DNA from: Chiloscyllium plagiosum
Taxonomy: Eukaryota
Assembly (NCBI RefSeq): GCF_004010195.1
Contig: NC_057718.1
Location: 81,229,912-81,293,911, forward strand
Reading direction: 5' to 3'
Length of the DNA stretch: 64,000 nt
The notes under the pieces are model-generated. The model saw only the letters and a list, made by a program, of their open reading frames with translations. It ran no database searches and was not told where the DNA came from. This document shows positions 949 to 60,160 of this stretch, in pieces (within the stretch, counting starts at the first letter, position 1; each line of letters starts with the position of its first letter). Both the position numbers and the translations under genes were made by a program.

Positions 949-1042
949 GATGATTCCCAAAATATTAAGGGATACTGACAGACCATAGAGGGATTTGAAA
1001 AAAGGATGCGAATTTTAAAATTGCGATATTGCTTAATTGGGA

Positions 1043-13862: not shown

Positions 13863-14334
13863 GTTAAAAATCACACAACACCAGGTTATAGTCCAACAGG
13901 TTTAATTGGAAGCACACTAGCTTTCGGAGCGATGCTCCTTCATCAGGTGATTGTGGAGGGCTCGATCGTAACACAGAATTTATAGCAAAAATTTGCAGTG
14001 TGATGTAACTGAAATTATACATTGAAGAATTGATTGTCTGTTAAGCCTTTCATCTGTTAGAATACAGTGATAGTTTCACTTCTTTCATGTGTACATCACA
14101 AAACCCTTTTTTGAAAGTTGCATTCTCGGGTTAGCTGTTAACAATGGTGATAGCTAGACAATATGTTGAAGGTGTTAGCCCCCTGTGTTCTCTGTCTATG
14201 ACCTGATGTTTAGATTGATTCTAATCTAAAAAGTGAGATAACAGAGTTTTACATAAATTCATGCAGTCTATAGCCTGGTGTTGTGTGATTTTTAACTTTG
14301 TACACCCCAGTCCAACACCAGCATCTCCGAATCA
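13863..14334 (-). mobile_element. Penelope-like family A non-coding insertion: long minus-strand pLTR, short inverted arm and tail
   Basis: Perfect 12-bp TSD TGGATGAACTGT (13851-13862 and 14335-14346). Inverted ends GTTAAAAATCACACAACACCAGG and CCTGGTGTTGTGTGATTTTTAAC. Homologous to the ends of the coding PLE at 42763-47202. Confidence 0.9.
13915..13949 (-). ncRNA. Minimal type-I hammerhead ribozyme (PLE-associated)
   Basis: The minus strand reads CAC-CUGAUGA-A-GGAGC-AUC-GCUCC-GAA-AGCU-A-GUG: stem I CAC/GUG, intact core, 5-bp stem II, palindromic AGCU in place of stem III, CUA triplet. Confidence 0.8.
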
Positions 14335-16862
14335 TGGATGAACTGTATCATACTTCCCTCTGTGTCGTGCTGCAGGGGGACTCTGTAAAATGGAGGCTGG
14401 GACTTTTATGTCATTCCATCATATGCCATGATGCAGTGATGATATCATTTGAATATCCCTTAAAGTTATATTGCATATTTGCTGTGTGACAAAACAACAA
14501 TTACTCAGTAATTCTGAAAACTTTAACAGCTGGTTGAATGATTATGTGACTGAACCAAACAGGCCAGTTCAAGTTGCATGTAACAAAGAAGGGGTAGAAA
14601 TCTATCCTGCTCATGTATGCATCTACATTTTTTTTAAATGAATCAGATAAAAGATAGTTAGTCTCATAGTAAAACAAACTATGTTTTGTATGGTGCAAAG
14701 CTGATGTTAATAGACTTCTATGAGTGTTGTTATAATTACTTATGTATTAAGAAGACTAAATGTATTCCTATAACACAACAAGAAAGGAGAAGAAATTGAT
14801 TTTGTATTTAGCTTTTCATGTTGTGCTCAAAATGGCAGACAAGTGCAGTTAGGTTTTAATAATCTATTTGCCTGAAAACTCTCAGAACAGAATGATTGAT
14901 TTAGCAGCATGTAGCACCTGTTCTGATTATTTGAAAGATGATTCATGCTCTGTCCTGAATCCCAGCTTTTGTCTATAATCCTATAGATTTCTCTAGTCAC
15001 TGTCTGACTGTTATTCACTAGCCTTTTGCTGGAGATAACAACTTTGAATAATTGGTGCAGTAAAAAAAAGTATCTTCAACTTGAAAATCTTTGTTAGGTC
15101 ACTTCTTAAACATATATGCTCAAAAGAAACAGTACTCAACTTTTCTGCATCACAAAATTGAAGACTCTCATATAAGAACTAAAATGCTAGAAAGACTTAG
15201 TCAGGCAGCATCTGGGGGAATAAATAGAGCCAACTTTCAAGTTGATGACCTTTGAAAGTTTTTTCAGAATTTTTCATGTATATTTCAGGTTTCCAGCATA
15301 TTATTGAAGTCACTCATCCTTTGTAACATCTCCCCACTCTTTCTCAGGTCTTCGTTTTTTTTTCTAAAGCATGCTGCCCAGAATTGTTCCCTGTATTGTT
15401 TCTGAAGCCTAATCTATGATGATTACTTTGCTGCTAAATTTTGTATCTAGTCTCCTTCATTTAGCCACCTTGCAAATCAGCACCCAGTCTGAAAATAATC
15501 CATTGGCATCGCTGCATCTTGACACTGAACAAACACACGAATAGCATCAGTTTTCTTTATTTCTGTAAACTTCCATGGAGTCCTGCTTTTTAGAAGAAAT
15601 TACTTGGCCCTTATCTTGTGTTTATGCTTTTCCTTATAACAGTGGTGAAACAATTAGGGCTGTTTAGGTATAACTAAACAAGTGTAGCAGAATTGACACC
15701 TCCACAGTAAAACACAGTTTGAATATTTCTATGTTGCTGAGCAGCTGCATATTAGAGTGTACCCAGTGAGTAGGTAATTGAACAGCCTGCAAGGTTTGTG
15801 ACTTGTTTTTGTTTTGTTTTAATGTGATTTAGCTGCTTGATAACCCTGTGCAGAGGTTGACAAGTAAGTGGCCTGCAAGTGATTGTTAAAGATTACACAA
15901 TTCAAGTAATTATTTTCTTGTCTTTAAGTGGATTTTAGTGAACATAACCCTCGTCACATTGTGAAATACTTGAACAGATTTTTTCCCATATTCAATTTCC
16001 CTTTTTACTTTGTATAGACTGTAATTGTTTCCTTTTAGTGCCTGTTTTCTCATTTCCTCTCCCGACTGCGTCATTGCTCTTGAGACTGCTTCCTTGGAGG
16101 CTGGTGACATTCTTCCCCCTTTTTCTTCACTGCTTTCCTGCCTTTCTAGAATAGATTTACCTGATAGAATTGAAGAAATTATGGTGAATTCTTTGACATT
16201 CTAACATGCTTTCTGCATGATTTGAGAGGAATTCACCAATGTGAAGTAGAATCATATAGACAAGTAAACTTCCAGGCGTAATTGAATCTGAGCAGACAAC
16301 TCATGTAAAATGAGTTCAGTAAACTGCTGAAATAAATGAAGCAATGACAGATGAAATTTAATAAGGGCAAAAGTAAAGTACTGTATGTAAACGATCCAAG
16401 TTGGTGCCGAAGTGTAGTGACATGATACACTTTTCACTGTACCTGAGTATGTGACAATATTAAATAAATCTAAATCCAAACAGAGGTTGGCAGTGTATAT
16501 TTTTGATGAATAATGAAATATCTGCAGATGAAGTTGAGCAAAATCTCTAGGATTCCGTAAACTCAACTTCCAACTGTCAAAGTTTGACTAATGAAACGAG
16601 TAGAAAGCTAGAGCCAAAGCAGATTCCAACCTGTTCCAGAGGTTTGTCATGAACATGTGAGAACAGGTTACTCAAAAGTATCTGTAAATCGAAGAAATAA
16701 TTGGTATAGGAAAGAACGGTTCCATTTCAAAGTGACACTGACACTAGTTCTAGGATAGAGTGGAGCAGTTTTGCTGGAATGGGGTACTGACAAAAGTTGA
16801 GATGAGAATAAGGAGCCAGTTCAAAGAATAAATAGGCTACGGAAAATTATTTCATACAGCCT

Positions 16863-17290
16863 TTCATTTATATACTGATTTAATGCATTTTACAACTTTA
16901 ATCATCTCAAATTGGTTCATGGTAATTATGTATTTTTGAAGTATGGTCACTGTTGTAATGCAGGACAAGTGGTAACAAAAGCTTCCACAAATATTAAAGC
17001 AGTAATGACAAAATAATTTAGTCATTTTTGTTGAGGAATTATATTTAGCTAAGACACCAAGGAGAACTTTGGGAAGAATGTGATCTTTGACATCCATCTG
17101 AGAGGGCAGATGGGGCTTCACTTATGTTATATGTGAAAGATGATACATTTGACGATTTATTTTTCTTTCCTCACTTCCTTTACTGCATTGAAATGCCAGC
17201 TGAGATTTTGTGCTCAAGTCTCTGGAATGGGACCTGTATTCTTAATATTCTGTTTCAAAGACAAGAATGGTACCAAGAGGGTCACTGCTT
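16863..17290 (-). mobile_element. DeuSINE (SacSINE-like), decayed
   Basis: Deu-domain-like ACACCAAGGAGAACT...GATCTTTGACATCCATCTGAGAGGGCAGATGGGGC. A related copy lies at 61290-61960. Confidence 0.6.
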
Positions 17291-17329
17291 TAGATCAAGA
17301 AACTTTACATCAGTAAAATGAGCGAAAGG

Positions 17330-17690
17330 CATGGACAAAATGGGCCACTCAGTGACTAGCACTGTTGCCTCACAGCGCCAGGGACCCGGGTTTGATTTCA
17401 GTGTCAAGTGACCGCCTGTGTGGAGTTTGCATGTTCTTCCCGTGTCTGGGTTTCCTCCAGGTGCTTCGGTGTGCTCTGTTTCCTCCCACAGTCCAAAGCT
17501 GTGCAGGTTAGGTGAATTAGCCAAGCTAAATTGCCCATAATGTTCAGGGATGTGTAGGTTAGGTGCATTAGTCAGGGGAAAAGTAGAATAATAGGATAGG
17601 GGAATGGGTCTGAGTGGAATCTCTTTGGGGAAATTGGTGTGGACCTAATGAGCCAAATGGCCTATTTTCACACTGCAGAGATTCTATGAT
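17330..17690 (+). mobile_element. V-SINE (HE1-like)
   Basis: tRNA-like head (CCTCACAGCGCCAGGGACCCGGG), V-domain and a CR1-like tail. Confidence 0.85.
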
Positions 17691-21369: not shown

Positions 21370-22310
21370 TTTTTTATTAAACTGTACAAAAATACAAATA
21401 GTCACCAATGAACAATTCACAGCAATTTACAGGGGAATGTGGCAGCAAAGCCAAGCCCCACTGTACAACCAATTCATGGGGAAATGCGGTCAAATCCCAC
21501 TGTAACTTCCAAAGAGCAAACAGTAGACACAAACACATACAACACAGTCCTGACCAACTGAATAATAAAACAGTGCATATCATACAGATACCCCTGGTAA
21601 ACAAGCAAACAACCCGCCCCTCCCACCTTTCGGCCACTCAAATGCAGCCTGCCCCTTTGCACCTTCTGGCTCTCGGTCTGCCCCTAGGTCCACCCTGATG
21701 CACCTTCTGGCCACCTGTAAGACAGCCTGACCCATTACTACCCCGGGTTGACAATGATCAGGACGGCCTAACCACCTCTGGCTCTCGGGACAGCCTACTC
21801 TCTCGCCAGCTCTCGAGGTGACAGCTTTCGGGATGACCTACAAACCTTCTGGCTTTCGGAACAACCTACTAAACATCTGGCTCACAGTAAAGCCTGCCAG
21901 ACCCAGGGACACACAAGAAATAGTGCAGGTAATTAAACCGACTATCAAAAATGCTGAGTCCATTACAAAAACAAAGTCCACACCAACAGGTAGCATCCAC
22001 ACCAGAATGCAACGAATGCACGCCTCATAGTACACACACAGGTTTTTAGCCTCTACAGAGGCCCAGGCCCACTCTCAGAGATATAGTTCATTTGTAAAGG
22101 AATAGTTGACTCACAGGGGCTCAGTCCAATCACGAAAAGGTGAAAACACTTGCAAAAAGAAAGTGCAGACACTAAAAACCACAGTGCAAGGGCCAAGCCC
22201 TGCCACAAGATTACCATTGTCCTTGCTCAAAAAACAAAAAGAGTAACACACAGGCTGCATTCAGCCAGTGAAGTTAAAAAGAAGTTTCCTCCTGAGAAAT
22301 AAAACAGAAC
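21370..22310 (-). other. Unclassified ~940-bp polyadenylated insert (LINE 3' UTR or retrocopy)
   Basis: The minus strand ends ...GTACAGTTTAATAAAAAA. It retains CpGs and interrupts the LTR subrepeats. Confidence 0.45.
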
Positions 22311-22427
22311 ATTTGGAGGTGCTAGTGTTGGACTGGCATGGACAAAGTTAAAAATCACACAACACCAGCTATTGCTTCCAAATAAACCTGTTGGACTATA
22401 AGCTGGTGTTGTGTGATTTTTAACTTT
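22311..22427 (-). mobile_element. PLE family A mini fold-back element
   Basis: Inverted arms AAAGTTAAAAATCACACAACACCAGCT and AGCTGGTGTTGTGTGATTTTTAACTTT, with the tail on the left. Confidence 0.85.
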
Positions 22428-24420: not shown

Positions 24421-25329
24421 AGTCAAGTGGCATGCAAGTAGTCCTGTGAAGGTAAACTTTCATGAATTTGGCAGTAGGGTTGATTTCCTTAATTTTTTTT
24501 CTATTTTCTACAATAAAGGTACAAAAAAACTGCAGGATAAATTTAGGTATTTGTACAAAGGTGCGTTTCAGCAGGATTTGAAAATGGAGTGTTACTTCCG
24601 TATGATTTTATGCAGACACTTAAGGGGAAGATATAATGGTAAGAATCTTCCAGAATCTGGACCATGTCGGCTTTGATAGGAAATTTGGGAAATTAGGTGA
24701 GATTAGCATTAATGAGTTTCTCAGTGTCAAGAGCAGTAGATCCTATGTGCCAGCTAAGTGGTGAACAGCAAGATGGAAATCTCATTGGTGAGCATTGAGC
24801 TTATTTCCAACCTTTCCATGCACTAACATACCATTATTAGTTAACTGCACCATATATATCAGCTTCCTAATGACCCACACCATCAAATAGAAACTAGACA
24901 ACAACAATTCCTGATATGAAAGTTAGTGGTTACCTGACAATTCCTGCTTGCCGCTTGTGATGAACAACTTACAGTGCAATGTCTTTGACACATGTTTACA
25001 ATATTATGTTCTTGTAGTGAGTAATTATACACTGTCTGAAACAGGATAGCTTTATTTCATGTTTTGTTATTTTAAAGTCTCCAACCTTTTAAGCGTAAGA
25101 TGACTTTTTAAATTTAAGCACAGCCCAAGATCTGCCTTGAAGAAAATATGGAATAAATGATTTATTTTTAGTGCAAAATAAATATGAAACCAAATATATA
25201 TAATTATTAATTTTGCTCTCCACTCATCAAGTTTTTATGATACCTGTGACTATACATTATCTGCCAGTGCCTTGAAATTAGGATTATAGTTTGAGAACTT
25301 AAAAAAAAAGAAAGACAATCAAAATCAAT

Positions 25330-25620
25330 CAAAAACAAAAACAGAAGTTGCTGGAAAAGCTCAGCTGGTCTGGCAGCATCTGTGAAGAGAAATCAAAGTA
25401 TGAGACTGTTAGTCCTGTACTGTTCATCAAACTGTACTGTGTCAGTACTCAATGAATATACTTATGTCCATATCAACTCCACTGCTTTGTAAATCGATCA
25501 TCTGATGAAGACCAATATAGAAATTGCTGGAAAAGCTGCATTCTGATGAAGGGCCACTTGATCTGAAACATAAACTCTGATTTATCCCTACAGATGCAGC
25601 CAGACTTGCTGAGCATCTAA
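25330..25620. mobile_element. Two PLE family B terminal remnants (25330-25400 and 25515-25620) nested in the hAT element
   Basis: AACAGAAGTTGCTGGAAAAGCTCAGCTGGTCTGGCAGCATCTG and its complement. Decayed CTGATGA-AGGGCC..GATCT-GAAAC core at 25543-25569. Another copy lies at 27205-27335. Confidence 0.65.
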
Positions 25621-26452
25621 TGGAATTTGGTTACCAATCCATCAATGTCTGCTTAAAGAAATGGAATTGAGACAAACATGACAATTTGTTCTATCACATC
25701 TCACTCTTCAGAGCACCTGTTGAACTCCTCTGCTGACATCCTCAAGTGTGTACAGAGGTTTTCTAGATGGAACCATATTTCCTTGCATTTGACAATTTAA
25801 AACATTTTTTTCAGACTCTGGAGTGTTGCAGCATTGCATTTTTTAATTGGGATTACAACATATTCAGTTTCAGATTTAATGCCTTTACAGCACTGATCAT
25901 ATCTATCCTTTACTGCAGTTCACAGTTAATCATATTCAGCTCTGACCATTATCTGACAGCTCACTACACACTTCATTCCTTCAGCTAAGAAAGGTGATTA
26001 CAAACATCTGATCTAAAAATCTTTGCTGAGTCTTCTGTTGACTTAACACCTCACATCAGCATGGAAGATTAGCTCACCCACAGACAGCATCGTGTTTGCT
26101 GAGTAAAGATTTAAATAATTGGTTCTGAAGGGCTTTTGCTCAAATCAAGTTTACAGTCTTAACTTTGATTCAACAAGAAATGACCATAACTTTGATAAAT
26201 AATGCTTGTTGGGGGTTTACACAGTGGTAATTGACAAAAGAGGGGAAACCAGGATCATTTCTCCAAAATAAATTAAAACCCACATTTCTACCAGGCATGG
26301 TTGGTGCACCATCAGTTGTGATAGAAACCAGTTTCTTGATTGGAACTTTTTACTCAAACATGTGTCTTTAGGCTTTGTTGTAGATATCCTCACTCCTTGT
26401 TCCCTTTTTAAAGATGTGAAAATCCTATTTTGTTGCTATGTCCTTAAAAATA

Positions 26453-26610
26453 ATGATGTAGAGGTGCCAGTGTTGGACTGGGTGGACAAAGTTAAAAAAT
26501 AACAACACCAGGTTATAGTCCAACACATTTATGATGAAGGAGCAACACTCTGAAAGCTCGTACTTCCAAATAAACCTGTTGGACTATAACCTGGTGTGTG
26601 ATTTTTAACT
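26453..26610 (-). mobile_element. PLE family A mini fold-back element nested in the hAT transposase
   Basis: Tail plus inverted arms, with TGATGAAGGAGCAACACTCTGAAAGCT hammerhead remnant at 26532-26558. Confidence 0.85.
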
Positions 26611-28309
26611 GAAAGTAATATGCACCACAATATTCAGCTGGGTTAATCAGTCATGTTAATGATTTTGTTAAACAGGGAGAAGCATTCACAGTACTTCAGG
26701 TCATGCTATAGTTGCTGAAAAATGTCTTTGGACAAAGACACTTGTGTTGCTACTGTGGAAACATCAGGCGATATGTTATTTTTTCTCAAAGTCATTGAAA
26801 TAAGGGTCAGTGGCCACAATCACTGCTGCTTCAAGTGCTTCACCATTTGCCAATTATTTCTATTTTATTTGCCAGTAAATGGCAAATGTGAAATGATCAT
26901 TGTAGGCTTTAGCTTTTGCTATCTGGTTTTAAAAAAAAGATTGTTGAGCTTTCACAAAGGCCTTCAGCTTGTATATTTGCTTTTCTCAAAGCATGCTGTT
27001 CAAGGGAAAATCATCCTTGAGTTTACTGTGCACCAGTGTTTGGTGTCATTCCAAATTCCCCTTTTTAATTATCAATGTACTTTAGTCACATAGGGCAAGT
27101 GCTCTTATGTTTTACAGTTGTGAACAAGAATTTAATTATATTCCTTTTTCTGTGGAAGTTGTACATTTTTGGTCTTTTTTAGGTTCATCATTTGTCATAT
27201 TAAAATAAATAACTGCAAATGCAGAAAATCTGAATCAAGAACAGAAATTGCTAATGAAACTCAGCAGGCCTGGCAGCATCTGTGAAGAGGAAGTAAGGTT
27301 AACATCTCGAACTCAGGGATCCTTCTTCAGAATGCCAGTTCTTCTTCCTTTCCCTCCTACTTGATATTAATCCCAGGCTCTGCAGTTAGGTGGATAGAGC
27401 CTGTCTTATAGTGGAGCCTGTTGCCTTGGAGTTTTATTCAGGCACCCCTGTGGACGTTTCTAGCTCGAGAGCCTAGTTGTGTTTTGTGTGTCCTGCTGAG
27501 ATGCAGGTGCACCCTCCACAGCTTGGACTCCTATAAGATTGAAGATAACAGGCATATTGGAGGTGGAAGGCTTGATAACTTCTGGAATATACTGAGAGAA
27601 TATTTCAAGAGGGGTCAGTCCATAGGTCCTCCTCTGGCTGGATGGCTACTAGTCCTGCCTTGTCATCTTGTGAGGAAGGGGCACCTGGTCTTCGTCCTTA
27701 ACGCCTTGCTCAGCCCCAATGGCTGGAAAAAAGAGAATTGTTGATCTATGCATGTATCTAGTTGAACCTGAGTATACTGGCTTTCCATTGTTTTCTGCTA
27801 ACCTGTCTGTGGAGGCAGCCAAACCCATTCATTCCAGAGGCAGCATGATACAAACAGCAGAATCCTCCAACCTTCAAGTCGTTTATCCAGTGTCTCTGAC
27901 AAATCTTGCTGCTGCTTCTATATCTGCTTGTGCATTTCTATGAAGCTCTGAACTGCTGACACCATTTAGTCCTGTCCTGTCCTGTCTTGGACTGAGCTAT
28001 TGCCTGGTCTCTCTCTGTCCTCACAGTGCCAGTCAGCTGTGAATACTCACTGAGGTGTGCATATCTGTGCTGGAGAAGGGTGCAAAAGACAGCCTTGCTG
28101 ATGCACGCATTAAGGAAGCTGTGATGACTTTCTGCAAGGTAGAGGAAGAGCTGTCTTGCAGTGCCGTCCTGTGTACGGTGGGAATTATATAGATTTGACA
28201 AGTGCAATTCAGATGACAAAGGAGAGAATAAGAAGTGAAAGTGGGTGAAGACCAGGCGTATAAAGAGTACATATGAGAGCAGCACAGCAATGAATGATTA
28301 TTCTTTCTT

Positions 28310-33475: not shown

Positions 33476-34415
33476 TTTTATGGCCAGGCCTGAAAATTGA
33501 TTGCAGGTTGATTCTTGATCAAAATGCTCCATAGATATTGCTGCATTGGAGAAAGCAGTATGTTCAGTCAGATGGAAGACAATTGGCCAGTAATGAAGTT
33601 AATACCAGCATGTCTGGAAGGGAACATGATGGTTAAACAAAAGGTATGGCCAGAGAGTTTGAAATGGTTTTTGTGTTTTAGCATGAAGTTTATCAGCCAT
33701 TGGAAGTTCAGCAAATAAAAACTAGGTTGTAAGTGTTACTGAAGCTTCTTCAGAATGAATTGAAAAGGTGACCCTGATTAATGTCATTATCGGAAAATCA
33801 ACTGAGAAACATTCACACAACACCAGGTTATAGTCTAAATGGTTTAATTGGAAGCACTAGCTTTCAAAGTGCTGTTCCTTCACCAGGTGGTTGTGGACTT
33901 GATGAAGGAGCAGTACCCCGAAAGCTAGTGTTTCCAATTAAACCTGTTGGACTATAACCTGGTGCTGTGTGATTTTTAACTTTGTACACTGGCATCTCCA
34001 AGTCATGAGAAACTATATATATGTCTGGGTATCAACACATTGTGAAAACCACTTCAGTCATTGGCAGCGTTTTTTTTTCTTTATTCTTTTAACTGTGTTT
34101 GTTCGTCTGTCTTTTGTGTGAATGAGGCTGAAAAGAAAGGTTATCAGGTTTAAATCACAGACATCTATTAGATTACTTTGCTATTTAATTTTATTCTGAT
34201 AAAGTTACTGCATTATTAATAGATGTCTTTTGTTTAAATGACCTATCCAGAGTCGAGAATTGATTATTCAAAGTCTGGGACTGGCTCTTCAAAGAGTCTA
34301 ATTAGGAAGCATTGGGGTAAATTTTAAGGGTCTTCAAAGGTTTTAGTTTTCTAGTTTCATGAATACAAAGGATAAGAACGCTCGTTTGATTAGGCTGTCT
34401 GACTCGGTTGTAACA
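33476..34415 (+). mobile_element. Possible decayed solo LTR hosting a PLE insertion
   Basis: Ends with CGGTTGTAACA and has LTR-like composition. The 5' TG and a TSD are not clear. Confidence 0.3.
33811..34005 (+). mobile_element. PLE family A fold-back element with two opposed, decayed hammerhead cores
   Basis: ~75-bp inverted arms, TSD TGAGAAAC (33803-33810 and 34006-34013), TTGATGAAGGAGCAGTACCCCGAAAGCTAGTG at ~33899-33930. Confidence 0.9.
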
Positions 34416-35579: not shown

Positions 35580-38500
35580 TCATGGCAGCAGAGCTTGCAT
35601 TTTTGATATGTTGTTCCTACACAATGTGAGAAGTCATGGACACTTCCTATGTCTCTGGTGACCCTGTGTGCAGGAATTGTGAGAATTGCAGAGACTGGCT
35701 AACTGCATTTCAAAGCTGAAGTTGCAGGTGAACTGACTGTTGAAGCTGAGATTGTTGTGGACAGCATATTCATTGCAGTGGTTAACCTGCAGGAAAAAAA
35801 TTGAATAGGCAGCAAAGGGATGGGTTACCACCAGACAAAGTAAACCAGGTGACCCATGTGGCTCTCCATCTCTCTAAACTATCCTTTTGGATACTTTTGG
35901 GGGAGATAACCTCCTTGGGATAGCAGAGAGAGCCAGAGAAGAAAGAAGAGTACTGGAATTATAATGATAGGGGATTCATTATTAAGTGGAACAGATAGAC
36001 ATTTTTGTAGCTGCAAAAGAGACCTCAGATTAGCATGTTGCATCCTTGGTGTCAAAATCAAAGATGTTTCAGACAGACCATGTAACATTCTGAAGGAGGA
36101 GGGTGAATAGCCAGCGATAATGATACATATTGGTACAGACAAGGCAGGTTTTAAAAAAAGAATGAAGTTCTACAAGCTGGTTGCAGATAAGTAGAATGCA
36201 AGTTTGAAAAGAAGGCCTAAAAGATAGTAAACTAGGGATAAAGTTAAACATCACACAACACTAGGTTATGGCTGAACAGGTTTATTTGGAAGTATAAGCT
36301 TTCAGAACACTGCTCCTTTGTCATAAACCTGTTGCACTCTAACCTGGTGTTGTATGATTTTTAACTTTGTCCACCCCAATCCAATACTGGCATCTCCACA
36401 ATCTGAGGACAGTGCAAGTTACATCTGGACAAGACTGGGACCATGTCCTTGGGGGTTGTTTGATCGTGCTGTCAGAGAGAAATTAAACTGGAATAACAGG
36501 GTTGGAAACCCCTGAACAGTGAGACAGCGTAAGGGAAAGCAAGGATACAAACTTAAGTACAGAAAAGTAAAAAGCAAAAGGCAGAATAAACAAATGGTAC
36601 GAAAATACAAAATAAAGCTAAAATGAATAAGGTTAAGATGATACTTTTGAAGGCTTTATGTTTTAATTTGTGTAGCATTCACAGTAAGAGATTAATTAGC
36701 AACACAAATAGATATAAATGGTTATGATGTAGTTGCGATTACAGAGGCATGGCTGCCAGGTGACCAATGAGAAAAGAATATCCACGGGTTTTCCTTATTT
36801 AGGAAGGATAGACAAAAATGGAAAGGTGGTGGATTTGCATTGTTGGTAAAGGAGTAGTGAGAAGGATATTAGTCTGGGAAATCAGTGTGGCATCTGTATG
36901 GGTGGAAATAAAAATCATTAATGGGTCATAAAACATTGGGTGTTATCTGTAGTCACTGAAAGAGAAGCAGCAATGCAAGGGAAAACATTAAATAGGAGAT
37001 TAGAAATCCATGCATTAAGGGTGCCAATAATCATGGTGACTTTACTTATGACTTGGGCAAACCCATAAACTGTGGAAGAGAATCTCTAGGAGTGTATACA
37101 TTATGAATTTTCTTAAACCGATATGTTGAGGAACAGATGAGAGGTTAAGCTATCCTCGGTTAGGTCTTGTGAATCAAGAAAGCAATAATTACCAGTTTTG
37201 TTATGTATGGTCCGTTGGGGAAGAATGACCAAAATATAATTGAACTTGCTCATTAAGCGAGAGAGTAACGAAGATGAATGCAAAACTAAGGTTCTGAATC
37301 TAAATAAAGGGAACTACAAGGATATGAGGCATAAGTTGGTAATGATCGATTGGGGAACTTAATAAAAGTGTTGGCAGTGGACAGGCAAAGTTTAATATTT
37401 AAGGAACACATGCAAGAATTACAATAGCTATTCATTCCTGTCATTTTCAGAAGTAAAACTTGAAAGATAACTCAACCATGACTTTCAAAAGAAATCAGAG
37501 GTAGTATTAGATCCAAAGAGACAATACGTGAAATTGCCAGAAAAAGCAGCAAGCTTGAGAACTGGGAGCAGTTTAGAATTTGGCAAAAGAGGACCAAAAA
37601 ATTGATCAATTAAGGGGAAGTAGAGTATTAGAGTAAACTTGCAAGGATCATAAACACTGACTAAAAGCCTCTGTAAATCTGCATAGAGAAAAAGATTAAT
37701 GAAGCCCTTACAGTCAGACATGGAAGTAATTATAATGGGGCAGAGGAATTGAACATGCATTTTGTTTCTGTCTTCACAAAAGAGGATGCAAATGAATTCC
37801 CAAAAATGTTAGGGAACGAAGGGTGTACGGAGAGGGAGAAATTGAAGAAAATCAATATTAGTTTAACAAAAAATGCTAGGTGCTCATGCTAAAGATTGAC
37901 ATATCCCCAGGACTTCATAATCTGCATCCCAAAGTATGAAAAGATGTGGCCCTAGAAATATTGGATGTACTGTGGTCATCTTCCAAAATTCTATAGATTC
38001 TGTGCACTTCCAATAGATTAAAGGGTGGTAAATGTAACCATGCTATTTTTTAAAAAAAAAGGGAGAGAAGAAACTAAGAATTTCAGATCAGTTAACCTGA
38101 TGTTAGTAGTGGGAATATTCTAGATATTATAAAACACATGGTAACAGAACATTTAGAACCATTCATGTGAATAGACTAAGTCAATACGGTTTTAACTAAT
38201 CTTATGGAGTCTTTTTTTAAAAAATAGCACGGTAGAACAGATGAGGGAAAAGCAGTGAATGTGGTCCCTTGGATTTCATGGCAGTGTTTGGTAAGGTTCC
38301 CTTCAAGAGGCCAGTGGGCAAAAGTGAAGCACATGGGATTGGGGTAATATGCTGGCATGGATTGAGCATTGGTTGACAGACCAGAGAAACAGAAGAATTT
38401 CTGGATGACAGGCAGTTACTGGTGGGTGTGCACAGAGATTAATACTTGGTTTGCTGATGACACAAAACAAGTTGGGATTGAGAGGAGGCTAAAGGGTGGT

Positions 38501-41800: not shown

Positions 41801-43233
41801 TTGGAAAGTTTTTATCAAAGGAGGCTTCATGCATTGCTACAGTGCACTTTGTATATAATACATACTGCTGCAAATGTGCACTGGTGATTGGGAATGAGGG
41901 TATTAGTGATTGTTTAAGGTTGTGCATGAGGTACTGTTTTCTTGGATGGTGTCACAGTCTTGTGTTGCTGGGGTTGCACTCATCCACATAAGTTCGGAGT
42001 ATTCCATTTTGTTCTTGTAGATGCTGAACAGGCTTTGGAAAGGCAGGATTTATGTTTGCTGCGACAGAATTCACAGTGTCTGACATGATCTTGAAGTATG
42101 TATACGGCTGGTACAGTTCAGTTCTGGTCAATAATCACCACCAGAGTGTTGATAGGAGATTCAGGGACAGTCATGATGTGGATTATCCAGGGAGCCAGTT
42201 AGACTCTGTCTTTGAGGTTGGTTATGGCCAGCATTTGTGTGGTGCAAATGTTACCTTCCATTTCCTTACTGTAGTGCTTTAGTACAACTTAATCTTAGCG
42301 TTAACCACATTGCTGTGTGACTGGAGATAGACGTAAACCAGACTGGGTAAGGAGACATATTTCTTCCCCTAAAAAGACATTAATTTCCATTGGGTTGTTA
42401 TACGATTGATAATTTACTCTTATCCTAGGTTTATTAACTAATTGAATTTAAATTCCCCAGCAACTGTGGTAGGATTTTTGTCGGTATCTCTGTGTCAGTT
42501 CCCCAGGTATGCAGATTACTCATCCAGTAATATTATTGCGATTGTACCAGTACCTCTAGTTATATAGTTATCTAAAAGTATTTCACAAATGAAAATGTAT
42601 AAGCAGCCGAACTGTTGCCTGCCAAATATCCTTACAAATGTGCTCCTTTCTGCTTATGGTGGCTCTGGTTTTGTTTCTTCTGTTGCCCTTACCTATTTGA
42701 TAAACATATTTGTATTTGAGGATGTAACAAGCAGAATGGAGAGAGACAAAAATGTATTTGTAATTAAAAATCACACAACAGTTCTAGTCCAACAGGTTTA
42801 TTTGGAATCACTAGCTTTTGAAGTGCTGCTTCTTCATCAAGTGGTTGTCGAGCAGAATCATAAGACAGAGACTTTATAGCAACAGGATTGCAGTGTCATG
42901 GAACGTAATATTAAACACATTTACCTTAAGTCTTTCATTTTTTAGAATGACCATGTCAGTTTCGGTTCCTTCATATGTAAATTCCAGAACATTTTTAAAG
43001 TTACATTCTCAAAATAGCTTTTAATAATAGGTGTCATCTCAACTCAGATAATTGAAGGTGTGAAGTTAAAGTCTGTCTGTGTCCCAATGTTAGATCAGAC
43101 GTATTTTATTTCTAAAGTGTGAATTACAAAATCTTGCATGGATTTATGCAGTTTTTGAGCAAAATAAAATGTAACTATGCAAGTACAAATTTATCCCACA
43201 AGCTTATGTGTGTGTGAGCATGTGCTGGGGAGA

Positions 43234-43273
<40 letters not shown>

Positions 43274-46164
43274 CTGAGTGTAATGGGTATACGTCTGTGA
43301 GAGAGTGTGTGTGTGAATGAGACAGAGAGAGAGAGAATGGAGTAGTGGGGTCACCTGTTGTGTGACATGAACCCAAGGTCCTGGTTGAGCCCATCCCCAT
43401 GGGTACCAAACCTGACTATCAGCCTCTGCTCGACCAGTTTGCGTTGTTGCCCGACCCGAATTCCTCCTTAGAGGGTGGTCACCCAGAGGTCCGGTGCCAA
43501 ATGTACTGGACCACTGACTGGGAAGGAACACTCCTGCCTGGTGAATGTTGTCCATTGCTGTTGTCTTTGCTCAGTCTTGCTAATGTATTATGCCTCAGGC
43601 ATCCTTGCCTGTAATGTATAAGATAGACAACATTGGCAGAGTCACATGAGTACCTGCCACATACTTGGTGGGTGGTGTCTCCACAAGTAATGGTGGTGTC
43701 TGTCGACATTCTGACATGCCTTGCAGCATCTGCCGTGACAAGATTATATGGTGCTGTCCTGAAAGCAACGCAGTTTGCTGCGAATAATGATCTCTTTAGT
43801 TTGGCGGTTGATTAAAGGCGAGAAGGGGATGCATGTGGAAGGTTCTGCTGAGGTGCTCATCCTCATTGATGATGTGTTGCCTGCGAAGAACATGGTGTAG
43901 GTTTTTGGCTCCTGGGAAGTACTGGACAATGGAAGGTACCCTGTCAGTTGCAGCTCGTGTCTGTCTCCTGAGGCGATCATTATAGTTTCTCACTGTGGCA
44001 CGTCCGAACTAGCGGTCGATGAGTTGAGCATTGTACCCTGTTTTTATGAGAGCATGCTTGAGTACTTCCAAGAATCTGTCATGTTCCTCCTCATCTGAAC
44101 AGATCCTGTGTACACGTAGGGCTTGTCCATAGGGGATGGCTGTATTAATATGTTTAGGGCAGAAACTAGAGAAGTGTAGCATCATGAGGTTATCCGTGGG
44201 TTTACAATACAGTGAGGAGCTGAGGTGCCCATCTTTGATTGAGATGCATGTGTCCAAGAATGAGACAGATACTAAAGAGTCGTCCATGGTGAGCTTGCTG
44301 GTGGAATGAAACTCATTGATATCTCTGTATAGTTGTCTCAGTGACACCTCACCATGGGTCCAGAGGTAGAAAATGTCATCAACATACTTGATATATAGTG
44401 TTGGTTGGAGGTCCTATGTGGAAAAGAAGTCTTGTTCAAACTTGTGCATGAAAATGTTGGCATACTCTGGTACAAATTTGGTCCCCATGGCTGTTCCATG
44501 TGTCTGGATGAAGAATGGTTGTAAAGGTGAATATGTTGGGCTCGAGGATGAAGCAGATGAGTTGTAGGACCATGGCAGTTATTGGTATTGAGTACTGAGG
44601 CTGTTGTCGCGATGCCGTCATTCGTGGGGATGCTGGTGTGAGAGTGCTGAATGTTCCCATTTCGACTGGTCCACGGGTGCTGAGTTTCTGTAAGAAATCT
44701 GTAGTATCGCAACAGAAGCTGGGGGTCCATTGTGCAATGGGTTTCAAGATGCCTTTGACATAGCCAGAGAGATTCTCACACAGGGTCCCCTTGCCTGATA
44801 TGATGGGATATCCTGATGTGTTGGCATTGTGTATCTTTGGAAGGCAGTAGAAGTCACCTACGTGAGAAGTGCATGGGATGAGGGTGTGGTGGGAACTCTG
44901 AAGGACTGGATCCAAAGTCCACATCAATGTCATTAGTTCACAGGTGTGCTCTTTGGTCAGATTGGTAGTTGCCTCTAATGTTCCTGGTTGTTCAGTTGTT
45001 GGTACACTTCCCTGCAGTAGTCCATTCTGTTCTGAATGATGATGGCTCCTCCTTTATCTGCTGGTTTGATGACCATATTGCGATTGATTTTGAGAGCATG
45101 GATGACGTTGCATTGTGATTGGGTGATGTTTTGTTCTACCTTGTGGATGCTGCTGATGAATCTGGCATTTATATATTTCTTGACAGTTTGAGCACACACG
45201 TCAAGCTCAGGTCAGCAGTCCTTCGGTGGGGTCCAAGTTGACTCCTCCTACGGATCCTTGTGATGACTGTTCTGTTTCATTGGTGGAATCACTGCTGGCA
45301 GCTTGACACAATTTCCGGAGGTTCATTCATCTGGTGAATTCCTCCATGTCTGCTGCAAGACCCATGGGGTCCATTTTAGTGGTGGGGCAGTACTCAAGCA
45401 TGCTCTCATAAGAACGAGGTACAACGCTCAACTCATCAACCACTAGTTCTGACATGCCACAATGAGAAACCACAATGACCTCCTCAGGAGACAAACACGA
45501 GCTGAAACTGACAGTCTACCCTTTCATTGCCCAGTACTTCCCGGGAGCCGAGAAACTACACCATGTTTTTCGCAGCCTGCAACACATTATCAATGAAGAT
45601 GAGCACCTCGCCAAAACCTTTCCCACGCTTCCCTTTCTCGCCTTTAAACAACCGCCAAACTTTAAACAGATCATTGTTCGCAGCAAACTGCTTGGCCTTC
45701 AGGACAACACCATATAACCCTGTCACAACAGACGCTGCAAAACATGCCAGTGTGTTGACACGGACACCATCATTACATGTGGGGACACCACCCATGATGT
45801 GTGCGGCAGGTAGTTATGTGACTCTGTCAACGTTGTCTATCTCATATGCTGCAGGCAAGGATGCCTTGAGGCATCATACATTGGCTAGACTGAGCAGAGG
45901 CTAGGGCAATGGGTGAATGGACATTGCACAACAATCACCAGACGGGGTGTTCCCTCCCAGTTGGGGAGCACTTCAGCGGTCCGGTACATTCGGCCTCGGA
46001 CCTTTGGGTGACCATCCTCCAAGGCTGACTTCGGGACAGGCAACAATGCAAAGTGGTCAAGCAGAGGCTGAGATAGGCAAGATTGGTACCCATGGGGATG
46101 GTCTCAACCAGGAACTTGGGTTCATGTCACACTGCAGGTGAGCCCACTGCACTCTTTCTACCAA

Positions 46165-46692
46165 CACACCACGCCCCACACACACATGTTCTCCCCCCCC
46201 CCCCACACACACACACCCCCCACACACACACATGCCCCATATGCTGTCACGCCCATATGTTCTCACGCCCTACACATTGTCTCATATGCCCTCATGCACC
46301 CATCTGCACTCACAACCACACATGCACCCTCTCATACATTCACAAGGCTCACACATGCACCTGCACTCACCTCCTGACCTCTCACCCACACAGGCATCCT
46401 TTCATATGCTCTCAGGCTCCACACATGCTCTCACGTCCCACATACGTTCTCACGCATACACCCGCACTTACATCCACATACACGTACCCTCTCATACACT
46501 CACAAACCCTCACCCACAGTCTCGCGCACACATGCACCCTCTGATATGTTCTCTCTCACTCACTCGCGCACTCTCTCTCGCGCGCACATGCTCACACGCG
46601 CGCACACACGTGCACACATGCTGCCTCTCATGCTCACACACAGGTCTCCCCTGAATGCATGCGCGCATGTATATACACACACACACACACAC
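46165..46692 (+). repeat. Degenerate CA-rich low-complexity tract in the PLE 3' UTR
   Basis: CACA/CTCA-rich array. The counterpart (TG)n/(GA)n tract on the other arm is at ~43206-43335. Confidence 0.9.
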
Positions 46693-47082
46693 GCTTGTGG
46701 GGTACGTTTGTACTTGCAGAATTACATTTTATTTCACTCAAAAGCTGCATAACTCCATGCAAGATTCTGTAACTCATACTTCAGAAATAAAACAAGTCTG
46801 ACCGAACATTGGGACACAGATAGATGTGCATTATCAATGCATTATCTGAGCTTAGAGGCACCTGTTGTTAAGTGCATTATCTGAGCTGAGATGGCACCTA
46901 TCAAAAGCTATCTTGAGATGTAACTTTAAAAAAAGTTCTGGGATTTACATGTGAAGGAACCAAATCTAACATGGTCATTGTAAAAGATGAAAGACTTAAG
47001 CTAAATTTGTTTAATATTACATTTCCATTTCACTGCAATCCTGTTGCTATAAATTCTGTGTCTTGTGCTTCTGCTCCACAAC

Positions 47083-47120
47083 CACCTGATGAAGGAGCAG
47101 CACTTTGAAAGCTAATGATT
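47083..47120 (+). ncRNA. Decayed hammerhead ribozyme in the PLE terminus
   Basis: CAC-CTGATGA-AGGAGCAGCACTTT-GAAAGCTA-ATG. The core is intact, but stems I and II are mutated. Confidence 0.6.
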
Positions 47121-48930
47121 CCAACTAAATCTTTTGGACTATAATCTGGTGTTGTGATTTTTAACTTTGTCCACCCCAGGCCAACACCGGCACCTCCAAA
47201 TCATGTATATGTAGTGTATTTGAATTTCCTAAAGGCTTTTATAAAGTATACACGTAAGTTTACTGCAGAAGATAACAGCTCATTGTGTAACTTAGCAAAT
47301 TAGTGTGGATAGAGGTTGTATACGAGGAAACAGGAAGCAGACTGTAACCAGTAGAGTCCATAGGCGCCAATATTGGGATCTTAATGATCTGCATTAGTAA
47401 CTTGAATTAAGGGGTAACTAATCAGCCAAATTTGCTGATAATTCAAAGCATGGTAAGGAAAGCAAGTGAGGATACAAAAGCATATAGACAAATTAGGTGA
47501 GTTAGCAAACATTTGACAGATTATAATGTGAGGAAATGTAAAATTGTTCACCTTGTTTAAAGTATTATTTAAGAGGTGAGTGGCTGCAGAATACTGCAGT
47601 ACAGAGGAATCTGAATTTCCATGTGCTTGAATCAGTAAAGGTTAGCCTACAAGTGTGGCAAGTAATTGAGGTTTGTAATCTGTATTGCATAGGGAAAGGA
47701 GTATAAAAGAATGAAACGTTGGTAGAATTGCTTAGGACATTGGTGAGACTGCATTTGGAGTACTATGTATAATTTTCATCATTTCAGATAAGGACAGAAT
47801 ATACTTGCATTGGAAGCGGTTCAGAGAAGGTACTGTAACTGATTCCTGGCTTTTCTTTTGAGAAACTGTTCAGCAGATTGGGCCAATATTCATCAAGAAT
47901 TTAGAAGAATGAGAGGTAATATTATTTAAACAAAGAAGATTCTGAGAAGGCTTGACAAAATGAAATACTGAGAGGATGTTTGCACTAATGAGTGAATCTA
48001 CAACTAAGAAGCACTGTTTAAAAACAATGTATGTCTCATTTACTACAGATATTAGATGAAATTTCTTCTCTCAGCGGGTTGTTAATCTCTGGTTTTCTCT
48101 TCCACAGACAGTAGTAGAATGTGAAACTATGCTAAAGGACTGTGTTGGACAGATTTTTGATCGACAAGTTGAGCAAACAGGAAAATGGAGTTAAGGCGAC
48201 AATCCAATCAGCCATGATCTCATTGAATGGTAGAGCAGACTTAGGGGGTTGAATGGCCTATTACTGGGCCTTCTATTATGGTCTTGTAATGTTATCTGCC
48301 AATGGTATGCAGTTAGTCACATTTACTGTATTATGTAAATCTATTTGGCAGATATTTTTCTTTATTAAGAATGGGCTTGTGTTTGGGCTTATAAAATTTC
48401 TTGGAATTTACGCATTTTTTGATCCATGTTCTGAATGTATTCTAATTGATTTAAAGATGGGGAAACTTTCAGAATTTCATGTCCAGTCTGATGATTGTCT
48501 TCTTTCCTGCAAAGAATGAGTCTCAAAGATATGTCACTGAAAATATCTTGTAATTCTAACCAACCCCTCATGGTAGCTTCCCATTGGGATAAGGAACTCT
48601 CTTTTTTCATCTCCCTGTGCCAACTGGCAGTTCAACTCAAAGCATATCTTCAATTGCCTCTATTATTTGGATAGTAAATATCAGGAAAATTAAGTTCCAG
48701 GATGATGTGTTGAGGTTGTAGCTAATGATGATACAGATTAACTCTATTTATTATTGCTCTTTATTTAATATATTTTATTTCTCTCAGGTTTGTTTGGTTA
48801 ATTTAAACCTGATGGTATTTTGATTTTTAAGTATTCTGTGTTTCTTTTGAAGACCAAATGAAGCATAAATTTGCCTGTCTCAGTTCATGTGTTATTGTGT
48901 AACAATTTTTTGTGCCAGGATCGGTTGGTT

Positions 48931-49563: not shown

Positions 49564-49599
49564 TGGTTGCTCCATCTTTTCTAAAACCTCCAACAGATT

Positions 49600-50080: not shown

Positions 50081-50861
50081 TAATGGCCCAGATCATTTTA
50101 TCAGTGGCGATGCATCTACATTGTCCCTGTCCACAAAGACCTCTGTGCCCTTGACCTTTTTTGCACTCTTCCAACTAGGATTTCTGTTCCTGGCTAGAGC
50201 AGCAAAGAACACATCAGTGAGTCAAATAGGGATGGGTGAAGAGGAACATTGCAGAAAAAACACTTCCTTTTTCTGACCTTAGCTGCTTCATTCACTTTAG
50301 TTTTTAAAGATATGGTTGTGCTTTCAATGGAACTGATTTATTTACTGCTACTAATCTTACATGTATATTTTGTCTGTGGTGCTTCTCCACTATCACGAGC
50401 ACTCTCATTTTGCTCTGAGGCATTTTTGCTATCCATTCTTCTTGCTCCTCCTTCCTCACTTTTTCTACATTTTAAAACCTGTCACTCTGTCAGTCTCCTT
50501 CAATTTCAAAGAAGAATCATATTGGACTAGAAACACTTTGTTTATCTTTCCATTCCTGCTGCTAGACCTGTTGAGTTTCTCTGTCTCTTACCACCTAACT
50601 TTATTGAGATACGAACTTTACAAGACGAACTTTACTGATATGTCCAAATACTAGCAGATGAAACTAGGTCAATTGGGATGTCTGGTCAGTATGAATGAGT
50701 TGGATCAAATGCTCTGTTTCCATGCTGTATGACCCTATGGCTTTATATTCTGTGTCTTGGTTTATTTTCTGTGTTTTAAGACAGTGCCAGAGAGTACAAG
50801 ATTAAACAAACTTTTCACTGTATTTGTAATATATACACAATAAATAAATGAAATCAAATCG

Positions 50862-51430
50862 GTTATACAGCACGGAAACAGACCCTTCAGTCCAATGTGT
50901 TTGCACCAACCAGGTATCTTAAGCTGATTTCATCCCATTTGCTAGAATATGGCCCATATCACTCTAAAACCTTTCTTTTCAGATATCTATCCAGATGGCT
51001 TTTAAATGTTGTAATTGTACCCGCCACCAACACCACAGCCCTTTCCATACACATTCCACTCTCTGTGAAAATGTTGCCCCTCTGGTCCCTTTTAAATCTT
51101 TCCCCTCTCACCTTAATCTGTACCCTTAACCTATCCTTGAGTTTTGGACTCCCTTTACCCTGGAAAAAAGACCTTAGCTATTCACCTTATATATGCCTGT
51201 CATGATTTTATAAACCTCTATAAGGTCTTCCCTCAGCCTGTGATCTTCCAGGGGCAAAAAACAGCATGTTCAGCCTTTCCCTTTAGCTCAAACTCTCCAA
51301 TCCTGACACCATCCTTGCAAATCTTTTCTGAAGCCTCTCAAATTTAACAACGTCTTTCCGATGGTAGGGAGACCAGATTGAATTCTAAAAGTGGCCTCAC
51401 CAATGTCCTTTAAAGCTGCAACATGACTCT
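50862..51430 (-). mobile_element. CR1 3' fragment
   Basis: Diverged homolog of 48931-49563. Confidence 0.85.
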
Positions 51431-56500: not shown

Positions 56501-56873
56501 GGTTTAGGGGTGACCTTATAGAGGTTTACAAAATTGAGGGGCATGGATAGGGTAAATAGACAAAGTCTTTTCCCTGGGGTCGGGGAATCCAGAACTAGAG
56601 TGCACAGGTTTAGGGTGAGCGGGGAAAGATATAAAACAGACCTAAGGGGCAACTTTTTCACGCAGAGGGTGGTACGTTTATGGAATGAGCTGCCAGAGGA
56701 AATGGTGAATGCTGGTACAATTGCAATATTTAAAAGGCATTTGAATGGGTATATGAATAGGAAGGGTTTGGAGGGATATGGGCCAGGTGCTGGCAGGTGG
56801 GATGAGATTGGGTTGGGATGTCTGTTCAGCATGGACAGGGTCTGTTTCCGAGCTGTATATCTCTCTGACTCTA
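53588..56873 (+). mobile_element. Younger CR1 LINE, 5'-complete, with ORF1 (Zn finger + SGNH esterase) and an internally deleted ORF2
   Basis: 5' UTR, ORF1 from 54181 (MAFSRVICTCLMWE; VVLGDSL; VIVHIGTND), APE endonuclease (IAITETWL, YYRPP, GDFNFP, SDHN), RT (GVPQGSVLGP, YINDLD, KFADDTK) and a GACTCTA tail. Confidence 0.95.
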
Positions 56874-58420: not shown

Positions 58421-59014
58421 TAACAGGAAACTCAAAGGAACTCTTCTTCAACTCCAACACACATTGCCATCAGTCCATCTCCCCACCTTCACACACACAC
58501 ACACCACTTCCCAAACCCCTCCCTCACTACTCATGCACACATTCAGCAGCAAACCCCTCCCCACTCTCTTGCTCACTCAGCAGTAGCCCCTGTTCCACAC
58601 CTCCCTCTTTGCTCCTCACTCAGCAGCAACACTTGCTAACTTCCCACCCCCATATTTGATCAGTAGCCCTTCTTCCCAAGCCCCTCAACCTCCACTCACG
58701 CAGTAGCCTCTCTTCACAATTGCAACCTTCCCCTAATGCCCACATGCTCCAGACTCTGCTTTATTTCTTTTGGTCTAGTTTGTGATACTAGTGAAGGAAA
58801 GTCACTACTCTGCGATAAGGCACCTCTCCAGCAGGTAGTAAGGGGCAGGAACACAAAAAAATCGTAAAGCTTTCATTCTGCTTACTGACATTTTGCATTA
58901 CTTTCCAGTTCTTCCTGCACTCAATGACTGAATTACACCTGCTGGCTTCTGTTTGCATCACATACACAGCTTCACATCAATAGGTCCAGGCTTTCACAGC
59001 AGAAGCTCTGGATA

Positions 59015-59325
59015 GGGGCAGCACGGTGGCTCAGTGGTTAGCTCTGCTGCCTCTCAGCACCAGGGACTCAGATTCAGTTCCAGCCTTGGGTGACTGTCTG
59101 TGTGGAGTTTGCACATTCTCCCCATGTTTGTGTGGGTTTCCTTCAGGTGCTCTGGTTTCCTCCCACAGTCCAAAGATATGCAGGTCAGGTGAATTGGTCA
59201 TGCTAAATTGTCCATGGTGTTAGGTGCATTAGTCAGAGGGAAATGGGTGGGTTACTCTTTAGAGGATCAGTGTGGACTTGATGGGCCAAAGGGCCTGTTT
59301 TCACATTGTAGGTAATCTAACCTAA
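59015..59325 (+). mobile_element. V-SINE (HE1-like)
   Basis: A box TGGCTCAGTGG at 59027-59037, V-domain and CR1-like tail. Confidence 0.9.
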
Positions 59326-59898
59326 AAAGAAAAGTGAACAAATATATTCTAGTTTATTTTTCTAATGAAATTGGTAAATTCATGTGAAAGTTAGGCTGAT
59401 AATGTCAATAATATATAAATAAATCCATTAACTTGCCTTTATTCTAACTCATCTGCATAGCTAATGTAAAGGGTGAGCATCAAGCATTCCAAACCAACAT
59501 CTACTATGTAAAATATTTCCATTTCACCATTTATTTAACATTTTATTTGAAGTGAAAATTGAGTGCAAGTGGGAGGCTATGTTTCTCACCCAATGCTCCA
59601 CTTTTATTCCTCCAAAGATGAGCACATGTTTAACACAAATGAAATACGTACTAACCATGATGAGGTTCAGACTTCAGTTATTTAATGTGACACTGAAAGG
59701 AGCAATGGGTGGTTATGTGTATTTGCTAAATTAAGAAATCCTTTGATTGAGAAAAGGTGGTATCACTGATATTTATTTTTCTGGGGAGGTGGAAATTGTG
59801 CAAACTTTCAAGAATGGGAAATAAATCCTGGCCAATCCTTGTTTTAGATGAACTAAGTCAAACGTTAAATAATGGAATAACTCCAATACACTATCACA

Positions 59899-60160
59899 TT
59901 GTTGTGGTTCTGTTCGCCGAGCTGGGAATTTGTGTTGCAGACATTTCGTCCCCTATCTAGGTGACATCCTCAGTGCTTGGGAGCCTCCTGTGAAGCGCTT
60001 CTGTGCTGTTTGTGATCACAGAAGCGCATCACAGGAGGCTCCCAAGCACTGAAGATGTCACCTAGACAGGGGACGAAACGTCTGCAACACAAATTCCCAG
60101 CCCGACGAACAGAACCCAACAACGAGCACCCGAGCTACAAATCTTCTCCCAAACTTTGAA
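59899..60160. mobile_element. PLE family C fold-back element (~106-bp inverted arms, 11-nt loop, 38-nt tail)
   Basis: Arms 59899-60005 and 60017-60122 are near-perfect complements. The unpaired tail is 60123-60160. Confidence 0.9.
60046..60085 (+). ncRNA. Minimal type-I hammerhead ribozyme
   Basis: GCA-CUGAAGA-U-GUCACC-UAGACA-GGGGAC-GAA-ACGU-C-UGC: stem I GCA/UGC, palindromic ACGU, GUC triplet. The mirror copy on the minus strand (59937-59976) reads GAAAUGUC. Confidence 0.85.

Follow-up and report, generated by a model that had tools for sequence, protein, structure and literature searches.

Where do the short, non-coding insertions with inverted arms come from that are scattered over a 64,000-nucleotide stretch of the shark Chiloscyllium plagiosum (assembly GCF_004010195.1, contig NC_057718.1, forward-strand positions 81,229,912 to 81,293,911; hereafter the window)? 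Their ends are inverted as in miniature inverted-repeat transposable elements (MITEs), some carry the core of a hammerhead ribozyme, and a first interpretation made from the letters (the sequence-only reading) had taken them for retrotransposition products of Penelope-like elements (PLEs) and not MITEs. This origin is supported by target duplications of 8-12 bp that are variable, by a tail on one side only and by a coding copy with the same layout. The hairpins are probably short Penelope end-pieces joined head to head, likely made afresh at each site by the element's enzyme, which would cut both DNA strands and from each cut copy a small part of the element RNA.

Self-comparison and alignments bear out the positions given earlier as well as the division into three sequence families, A, B and C. 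Inverted arms, which had been described at ten sites, are present at seven of them together with a one-sided tail (self-comparison, alignment, folding; Table 1). The other three differ: 25330 and 27205 are single arms, and the two pieces of 25508-25613 lack overlapping arms, since they abut on the template (~3 nt overlap) and form no hairpin. Measured against 60 base shuffles each, the seven fold-backs have folding z-scores of -5.7 to -22.2, and folding is weak for 25518-25612 (z -1.2) and 27205 (z -1.0). The tail on one side only is confirmed, with lengths of 32-48 nt in family A and, by self-matches, ~36-38 nt in 1043 and 59899. If family A is numbered from the C of CTGATGA as +1 (47086 in the large element), the tailed arm stops at a point E, ~+119, and the other arm at a point T, +71 to +87. 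By alignment the five family A minis have four different junctions, +2/+41 being common to 26453 and 36238, and the identical layout spans 118 bp to 4.4 kb within the family. An additional, old family B remnant that had not been listed before lies at 15170-15300, with a reverse arm reaching the core region and a forward tail piece.

The long end of this size range is a decayed coding element at 42764-47205. Its arms measure 2,626 nt, containing residues 3-641 of the shark protein P0008, and 1,816 nt, containing residues 391-641; residues 3-641 are matched at 39-73%. The element combines a reverse transcriptase (RT) YVDD motif with a GIY-YIG-like stretch that has two inner cysteines, as is characteristic of endonuclease-bearing (EN+) PLEs, and the linker is C-x4-C-x2-C in both the element and P0008. 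In the available text of PMC8557442, a CX2-5CxxC linker before GIY-YIG marks the Neptune and Nematis clades; Neptune being the vertebrate clade, the element appears to be Neptune-type by motif. Its RT piece 44012-44413 matches shark proteins over the full length at up to 76-77%, bamboo sharks first (27 hits), and Pfam recognised only the RT in these homologues, with no relevant match in the RT or GIY-YIG fragments of the window. The proposed homology between family A termini and the ends of this element holds, at 73% over 279-291 nt and 76-89% in the last 80 nt. Because 42764-47205 has the mini layout with arms of 2.6 and 1.8 kb, the minis are its smallest form, and those of family A combine the features by which EN+ insertions are recognised, namely ends homologous to the pseudo-long terminal repeat (pLTR), an inverted copy, a tail and a variable duplication. 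Judged by their architecture, families B and C are probably Penelope elements too; no coding partner for either was seen within the window, and motif scans of metagenome and viral contigs, one for a family B motif among them, gave no match.

Target duplications were sought with a test anchored at both element ends, which replaced a too-loose unanchored version and used random window pairs as the null. They are significant at five of 11 sites: at 13863 (p<0.001), at 33811 and 42764-47205 (10/11 bp in the latter; p 0.0015), at 1043 (p 0.026) and at 25508 (10/12 bp; p 0.027). Length (8-12 bp) and sequence both vary, and the fixed TA or 8-bp duplications that the sequence-only reading had named as typical of DNA transposons were looked for and not seen. 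At 13863-14336, 33813-34008 and 42764-47205 the duplication begins with TG or ATG, overlapping the last letters of the element, possibly a short primer-template match at E.

The abundance of the family A end was followed by aligning DNA and RNA runs to 46720-47260 (26,722 contigs in X1, 24,115 in X14). Summed depth peaks at 1.4 million (X1) and 2.7 million (X14) at 47157-47175, against 10-66 thousand at 46929-47042; in X1 the terminal 150 nt reach 1.4 million, against 10-32 thousand on the upstream pLTR. With a single-contig depth of ~5-11 (X1) and 11-22 (X14), there are roughly 10^5 family A arms. Their 3' ends pile at 47198-47205 (490, 717, 1,016 and 848 contigs in X1), and the four strand-switch joints among the 15 of 75 joints listed, with 1-3 contigs per run, all differ, a number too small for a spectrum of junctions.

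RNA was taken from the single-cell run X21, 2% of which was read, giving 1,540 reads on the family A end. Among the loose ends listed, poly(A) stands behind 47141 (+56) in 134 and behind 47144 (+59) in 176, that is in 310 of the 1,540 reads. The A-runs begin 13-15 nt after AATAAA or ATTAAA and immediately ahead of a GT-rich stretch, at a point that lies past the ribozyme but short of either insertion end. A hexamer, a cut point and a GT-rich stretch make up the ordinary layout of a poly(A) site, and in this one run the RNA layout of the family A end is that of an ordinary poly(A) site. Most reads have AATAAA (47125 C>A in 317/505 and 49/76), ATTAAA is found in 13863 and 33811, and the copies in the window have no A-run at the poly(A) point. 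The depth of RNA in the dominant orientation halves there, from 530 to 256, and the polyadenylated RNA is the ribozyme-sense strand. No paper on a poly(A) site in PLE ends was found in a search that stopped short of subscription papers, Repbase/Dfam entries and supplements, which may hold it; Schostak 2008 (PMC2377424) maps the start site in Drosophila, and the part of it that is available has no passage on poly(A).

These observations suggest the following course of an insertion. A staggered cut would give rise to the 8-12 bp duplications that are seen, and each cut end would prime one cDNA, at E or at T, if the two start sites of Anolis Poseidon may be applied here. One cDNA would start at the far end E (+119 in family A), where 3' ends are seen to pile up, and the other at T, 32-48 nt upstream of E as in 6/6 family A copies; a second start this far upstream would leave the one-sided tail. 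Both cDNAs would stop early and be end-joined, presumably through the 0-4 nt of microhomology observed at the junctions. As an RNA polyadenylated at +57 has neither T nor E at its 3' end, priming would likely fall to the T and E of the upstream terminal repeat, close to where the RNA begins, and the RT would run off just before the hammerhead core. In line with such a run-off, 4/9 short family A arms start at -10..+2, close to the core, and none exactly at the predicted cut (+30), and two arms of family B, 25538 and 27335, begin 5 nt ahead of it. The greater upstream reach of the T arm (6/6 in family A, not in 1043) was considered as evidence for a single RNA template and dropped, because T starts upstream anyway. 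Hammerheads inserted in this way would be passengers that decay.

Several points weigh against this reading. Duplications are weak at 22311, 26453 (p 0.10) and 59899 (0.13) and none is found at 36238, 25330 and 27205 (range p 0.10-0.97). Subfamily divergence from the reference accounts for part of the fall in depth upstream of the core. All poly(A) reads stem from a single run of one sample and are not assigned to loci or independent molecules, and a second RNA run of the same sample (X22) gave 0 reads on the family A end, which makes it no test of poly(A). The RNA 5' end is inferred, and run-off alone is insufficient: 5/9 short family A arms have their start at +25 to +61, beyond the core, and need premature stops. 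Two of the five family A minis have an identical junction, for which the chance in the window is 0.3-3%, depending on the model, and the sensitivity of the junction-depth test described below is incomplete, the contig of 26453 itself being absent among the 24 pieces listed, with a further 2,419 beyond the listing. Finally, Arkhipova 2013, in the portion at hand, explains junctions of this kind by self-priming from an antisense template.

The two copies that share a junction, 26453 and 36238, are collinear across it (82% over 159 nt), and their flanks are unrelated, with no similarity detected (p 0.31-0.92). How common their junction is was measured by aligning three DNA runs and one RNA run to 26492-26549, which spans the junction with 40 nt from the first arm and 18 nt from the second; sequence adds to the depth of the shorter side only if it carries the junction. 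Here +2/+41 was the one junction tested, 1 of seven. Depth on the arm compared with that eight bases past the junction was 432,150 vs 67 (X1), 873,159 vs 268 (X14) and 40,486 vs 31 (X19), or 1.6-7.6 x 10^-4 of arm depth, a summed depth that is no copy number. The RNA run gave 17 reads, one of them past the junction. Most junction-spanning pieces among those listed are gapped; one in X1 and one in X14 are gap-free, both of which may derive from the 36238 locus (5 other letters vs 6 expected). Within the incomplete sensitivity of the test, no large family carries the +2/+41 junction, given that hundreds of near-identical copies would give a deep contig.

The pair may have arisen by chance, by copying over a short distance, or through two RTs working in step. 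A one-off event in which one mini, or one ribonucleoprotein, templated the other 10 kb away, with the other minis independent, has a probability not far short of even: the junction is exact and rare elsewhere, the subfamily letters are the same and the distance is small. However, no flank is shared, there is a single diagnostic letter per arm, as in other pairs too, and the chance of coincidence per window has been given above. Equal arm lengths, from two RTs in step 39 nt apart, could also yield the same junction without copying. Near-equal arms are a feature of 22310-22427 (59/59), 26452-26610 (80/79) and 36236-36405 (87/83), as if two RTs advanced in step. Separately, one of the four strand-switch joints listed, 47079/47119, has a matching 40-nt offset.

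Self-priming, in which one antisense template folds back and copies itself as proposed for the Penelope elements of Adineta, would also produce the head-to-head geometry and is argued for in the Discussion of PMC3846280; at 22311 the junction even has a 4-nt palindromic AGCT. Such an origin is unlikely here: most junctions lack both symmetry and a palindrome and leave 10-373 nt of one arm unpaired, the two pieces of 25508-25613 form no overlapping arms, and the polyadenylated RNA is on the ribozyme-sense strand. A still smaller probability attaches to the proposal that the Penelope machinery re-copies transcripts of some fold-backs as whole units, which would make these fold-backs non-autonomous retroelements. 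The alignment of 26453 with 36238 over the whole element, junction included, amid unrelated flanks would fit, as would two letters that they share and other copies lack. Against it stand the depth past their junction and the gap-free spanning pieces listed, which could come from the 36238 locus, and each of the remaining three minis has its own junction. The suggestion of the sequence-only reading that some units amplify non-autonomously is accordingly without support at the level of a family, with four junctions among five minis and +2/+41 at or below ~2-8 in 10,000 of arm depth; the comparison of junctions that it had proposed, run on reads for this one junction, did not yield many copies with one junction.

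Production of the hairpins as pairs of short cDNAs can be carried one step further, tentatively. In elements with long terminal repeats (LTRs), priming near the RNA 5' end gives a short run-off cDNA, the strong-stop DNA. The Penelope terminal repeat may be organised like a retroviral U3-R-U5, with the RNA start just before the core, poly(A) ~57 nt after it and strong-stop-like cDNAs primed at T and E. The hairpins, on the hundred-thousand scale, would each unite two such cDNAs that were captured with no strand transfer, in some cases synthesised by two RTs moving in step (59/59, 80/79, 87/83), and long copies would need a jump through the 60-nt R-like overlap. This is a model that we rate below an even chance.

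The hammerhead motifs had been thought to form a CUGANGA-stem II-GAAA core wherever the arm is long enough. A strict minimal descriptor is matched by three arms (minus-strand 13946 and 59973, plus-strand 60049; 0 in 30 shuffles). The minimal PLE hammerhead, with core, bulge, stem II, palindromic 15-16 region and stem I, is whole at 13946 and 60049, and the palindrome is lost at 59973. Core letters are kept and helices are not at plus-strand 47086 and 25543; in the other arms cores are mutated or cut off. CTGATGA at 25502 was rejected as a core, being target duplication plus element end, and the CTGANGA..GAAA strings at 7997, 22461, 24307, 25502, 52921 and 57027 fail the strict descriptor. An Rfam search found no hammerhead, and its sub-threshold, microRNA-like matches were rejected as hairpin artefacts; alignment folding with RNAalifold did not recover the hammerhead. 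In seven family A arms 81% of helix cells are paired in register, against 19-52% when slid, and the covariation check suggested earlier gave nothing above shuffles on these arms (1 double change; 301/500 shuffles as high). By eye, helix changes in family A are largely CpG-type decay, and the stems differ among families with the shape kept. Lone arms rarely form the hammerhead helices in folding prediction, and in the whole hairpins the core is predicted paired in 59899 and 33811 (unpaired probability 0-0.15; 0.43-0.54 in 26453 and 13863). Judged by their letters, the motifs are inherited passengers that decay. The idea that the insertions seed the genome with ribozymes holds at the level of motifs; most cores are decayed, and in whole fold-backs whose arms are both long, folding prediction pairs the core with the opposite arm.

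That hammerhead self-cleavage sets the insert ends, the minis being working ribozymes or retrozymes, is correspondingly very improbable. Cores are indeed much more frequent than expected by chance (3 vs 0 in 30 shuffles), and 22311 starts within 1-5 nt of the predicted cut; no arm, however, starts at +30, there are no tandem same-strand units, and the decay, the lack of covariation above shuffles and the predicted pairing away of cores in whole hairpins all speak against it. RNA reads cross the cut site with no end pile listed, in a poly(A) library, which cannot show a short cut product. MITEs of a DNA transposon, to which the short, non-coding units with inverted ends bear a resemblance, are virtually excluded because the duplications differ in length and sequence, and symmetric terminal inverted repeats, a fixed duplication and a fixed interior give way to a one-sided tail, a variable interior and homology to the RT/GIY-YIG element.

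Table 1. Penelope-related features of the window. Sites are named as in the sequence-only reading where it had one; junctions give the 5' end of the T arm / of the E arm.
Site	Coordinates (strand)	Feature	Arms and content	Junction	Duplication
1043	1042..1229 (+)	family B-type mini, divergent subfamily; fold-back with tail	62 + 126 nt; decayed core		8/9 bp
13863	13863..14336 (+)	family A insertion; fold-back with tail	405-nt inverted arm with intact minimal hammerhead (minus strand, core 13946); 69-nt forward arm with tail	-319/+54	12/12 bp
22311	22310..22427 (-)	family A mini; fold-back with tail	59 + 59 nt; without core	+25..29/+61	weak
25330	25327..25399 (-)	family B single arm	without partner or core		none
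25508	25508..25613	family B insertion	30-nt reverse + 76-nt forward piece, the latter starting 5 nt before core		~8-12 bp
26453	26452..26610 (-)	family A mini; fold-back with tail	80 + 79 nt	+2/+41	weak
27205	27205..27335 (-)	family B single arm with tail	start 5 nt before decayed core		none
33811	33813..34008 (+)	family A mini; fold-back with tail	84 + 112 nt; both cores mutated	-10/0	8/8 bp
36238	36236..36405 (+)	family A mini; fold-back with tail	87 + 83 nt	+2/+41	none detected
	42764..47205	decayed PLE, Neptune-type by motif, itself a fold-back			ATGTATTTGTA/ATGTATATGTA
	42764..45389 (-)	its minus-strand arm	RT, linker, GIY-YIG, pLTR to T end		
	45390..47205 (+)	its plus-strand arm	RT end, GIY-YIG, pLTR, tail		
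	47086..47117 (+)	family A minimal hammerhead region	core +1, GAAA +22..+25, predicted cut after +29; helices weakened in 42764-47205		
	47124..47144 (+)	poly(A) signal position and addition point (~+56..+59)	A[A/T]TAAA in family copies, mutated in 42764-47205		
59899	59899..60159 (+)	family C mini; fold-back with tail	112 + 149 nt, 93.5% alike; hammerhead on both strands (60049 plus intact; 59973 minus with stem III change)		weak

The window holds further repeats. Two short inverted repeats of ~94%, 946-981/1885-1920 (36 nt) and 2449-2494/3416-3461 (46 nt), each have their halves ~1 kb apart and are possibly small inversions; the former brackets the 1043 element. A 149-nt direct repeat, 98.7% identical, lies at 28479-28627 and 29592-29740, 1.1 kb apart, and is followed by a C-run. 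Fragments of a long interspersed element (LINE) with apurinic endonuclease (APE) and RT at 48937-51427 and 55381-56870, in both orientations and 72-90% alike, are presumably CR1-like. A dispersed family of ~300 nt resembling short interspersed elements occurs at 12036-12293, 17348-17663, 30726-31014, 59025-59326 and 62016-62308, and an imperfect 36-nt palindrome at 19391-19426 is unrelated to families A-C.

Hairpin-plus-tail insertions matter mainly for annotation, as they mimic MITEs and microRNA hairpins. A poly(A) site between the ribozyme and both RT starts would explain why copies are mostly tiny. The common family A ends, with poly(A) addition at 47141-47144, may also serve as poly(A) signals for host transcripts.

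Among known systems, LINE-1 twin priming uses two primers on one insertion and leaves an inversion; its cDNAs do not overlap and priming is at the poly(A). The piece at 25508-25613 resembles such a product, whereas elsewhere in the window the arms overlap and both starts are internal. Non-LTR retrozymes (bioRxiv 10.64898/2026.07.22.740005, as far as its text is available) are likewise non-coding, pLTR-derived, equipped with a type I hammerhead and present in a chondrichthyan; they are head-to-tail tandems with same-strand ribozymes, in contrast to the head-to-head pairs of the shark. Self-comparison of the window showed no direct tandem units, at least two of which, with same-strand hammerheads, define a retrozyme, and this identity was rejected. 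The minimal hammerheads of PLEs described in the accessible part of PMC4209133, which reports opposite-strand pairs 100-700 bp apart, share with those found here the type I core, the extra base before stem II, G10.1-C11.1 and a palindrome in place of helix III (AGCU in family A, ACGU in family C); unlike them, stem I has only 3 bp here, and sharks are not named in that part. Poseidon PAc of Anolis, studied in vitro (Frangieh et al. 2024, PMC11167929), is alike in that both strands are cut and extended and that RT starts at two internal sites downstream of the hammerhead, bracketing the tail, the ribozyme cut being dispensable. It differs in belonging to another clade, and the passages available describe no fold-back product, poly(A) site or run-off model. 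The closest parallel is provided by EN+ PLE insertions, which come with a 30-40 bp tail and a 5'-truncated copy in inverted orientation (PMC3846280 and PMC8557442, in the sections at hand; the layout is also described in those of PMC8969392). They share the head-to-head arms, the one-sided tail, duplications of 8-10 bp and the strong 5' truncation, but most units here consist of two 60-150 nt ends without a direct pLTR pair or open reading frame, at about one per 6-10 kb. The hairpin-plus-tail insertion is a known Penelope signature; what is added to it here is the poly(A) site and the negative outcome of the test on the shared junction.

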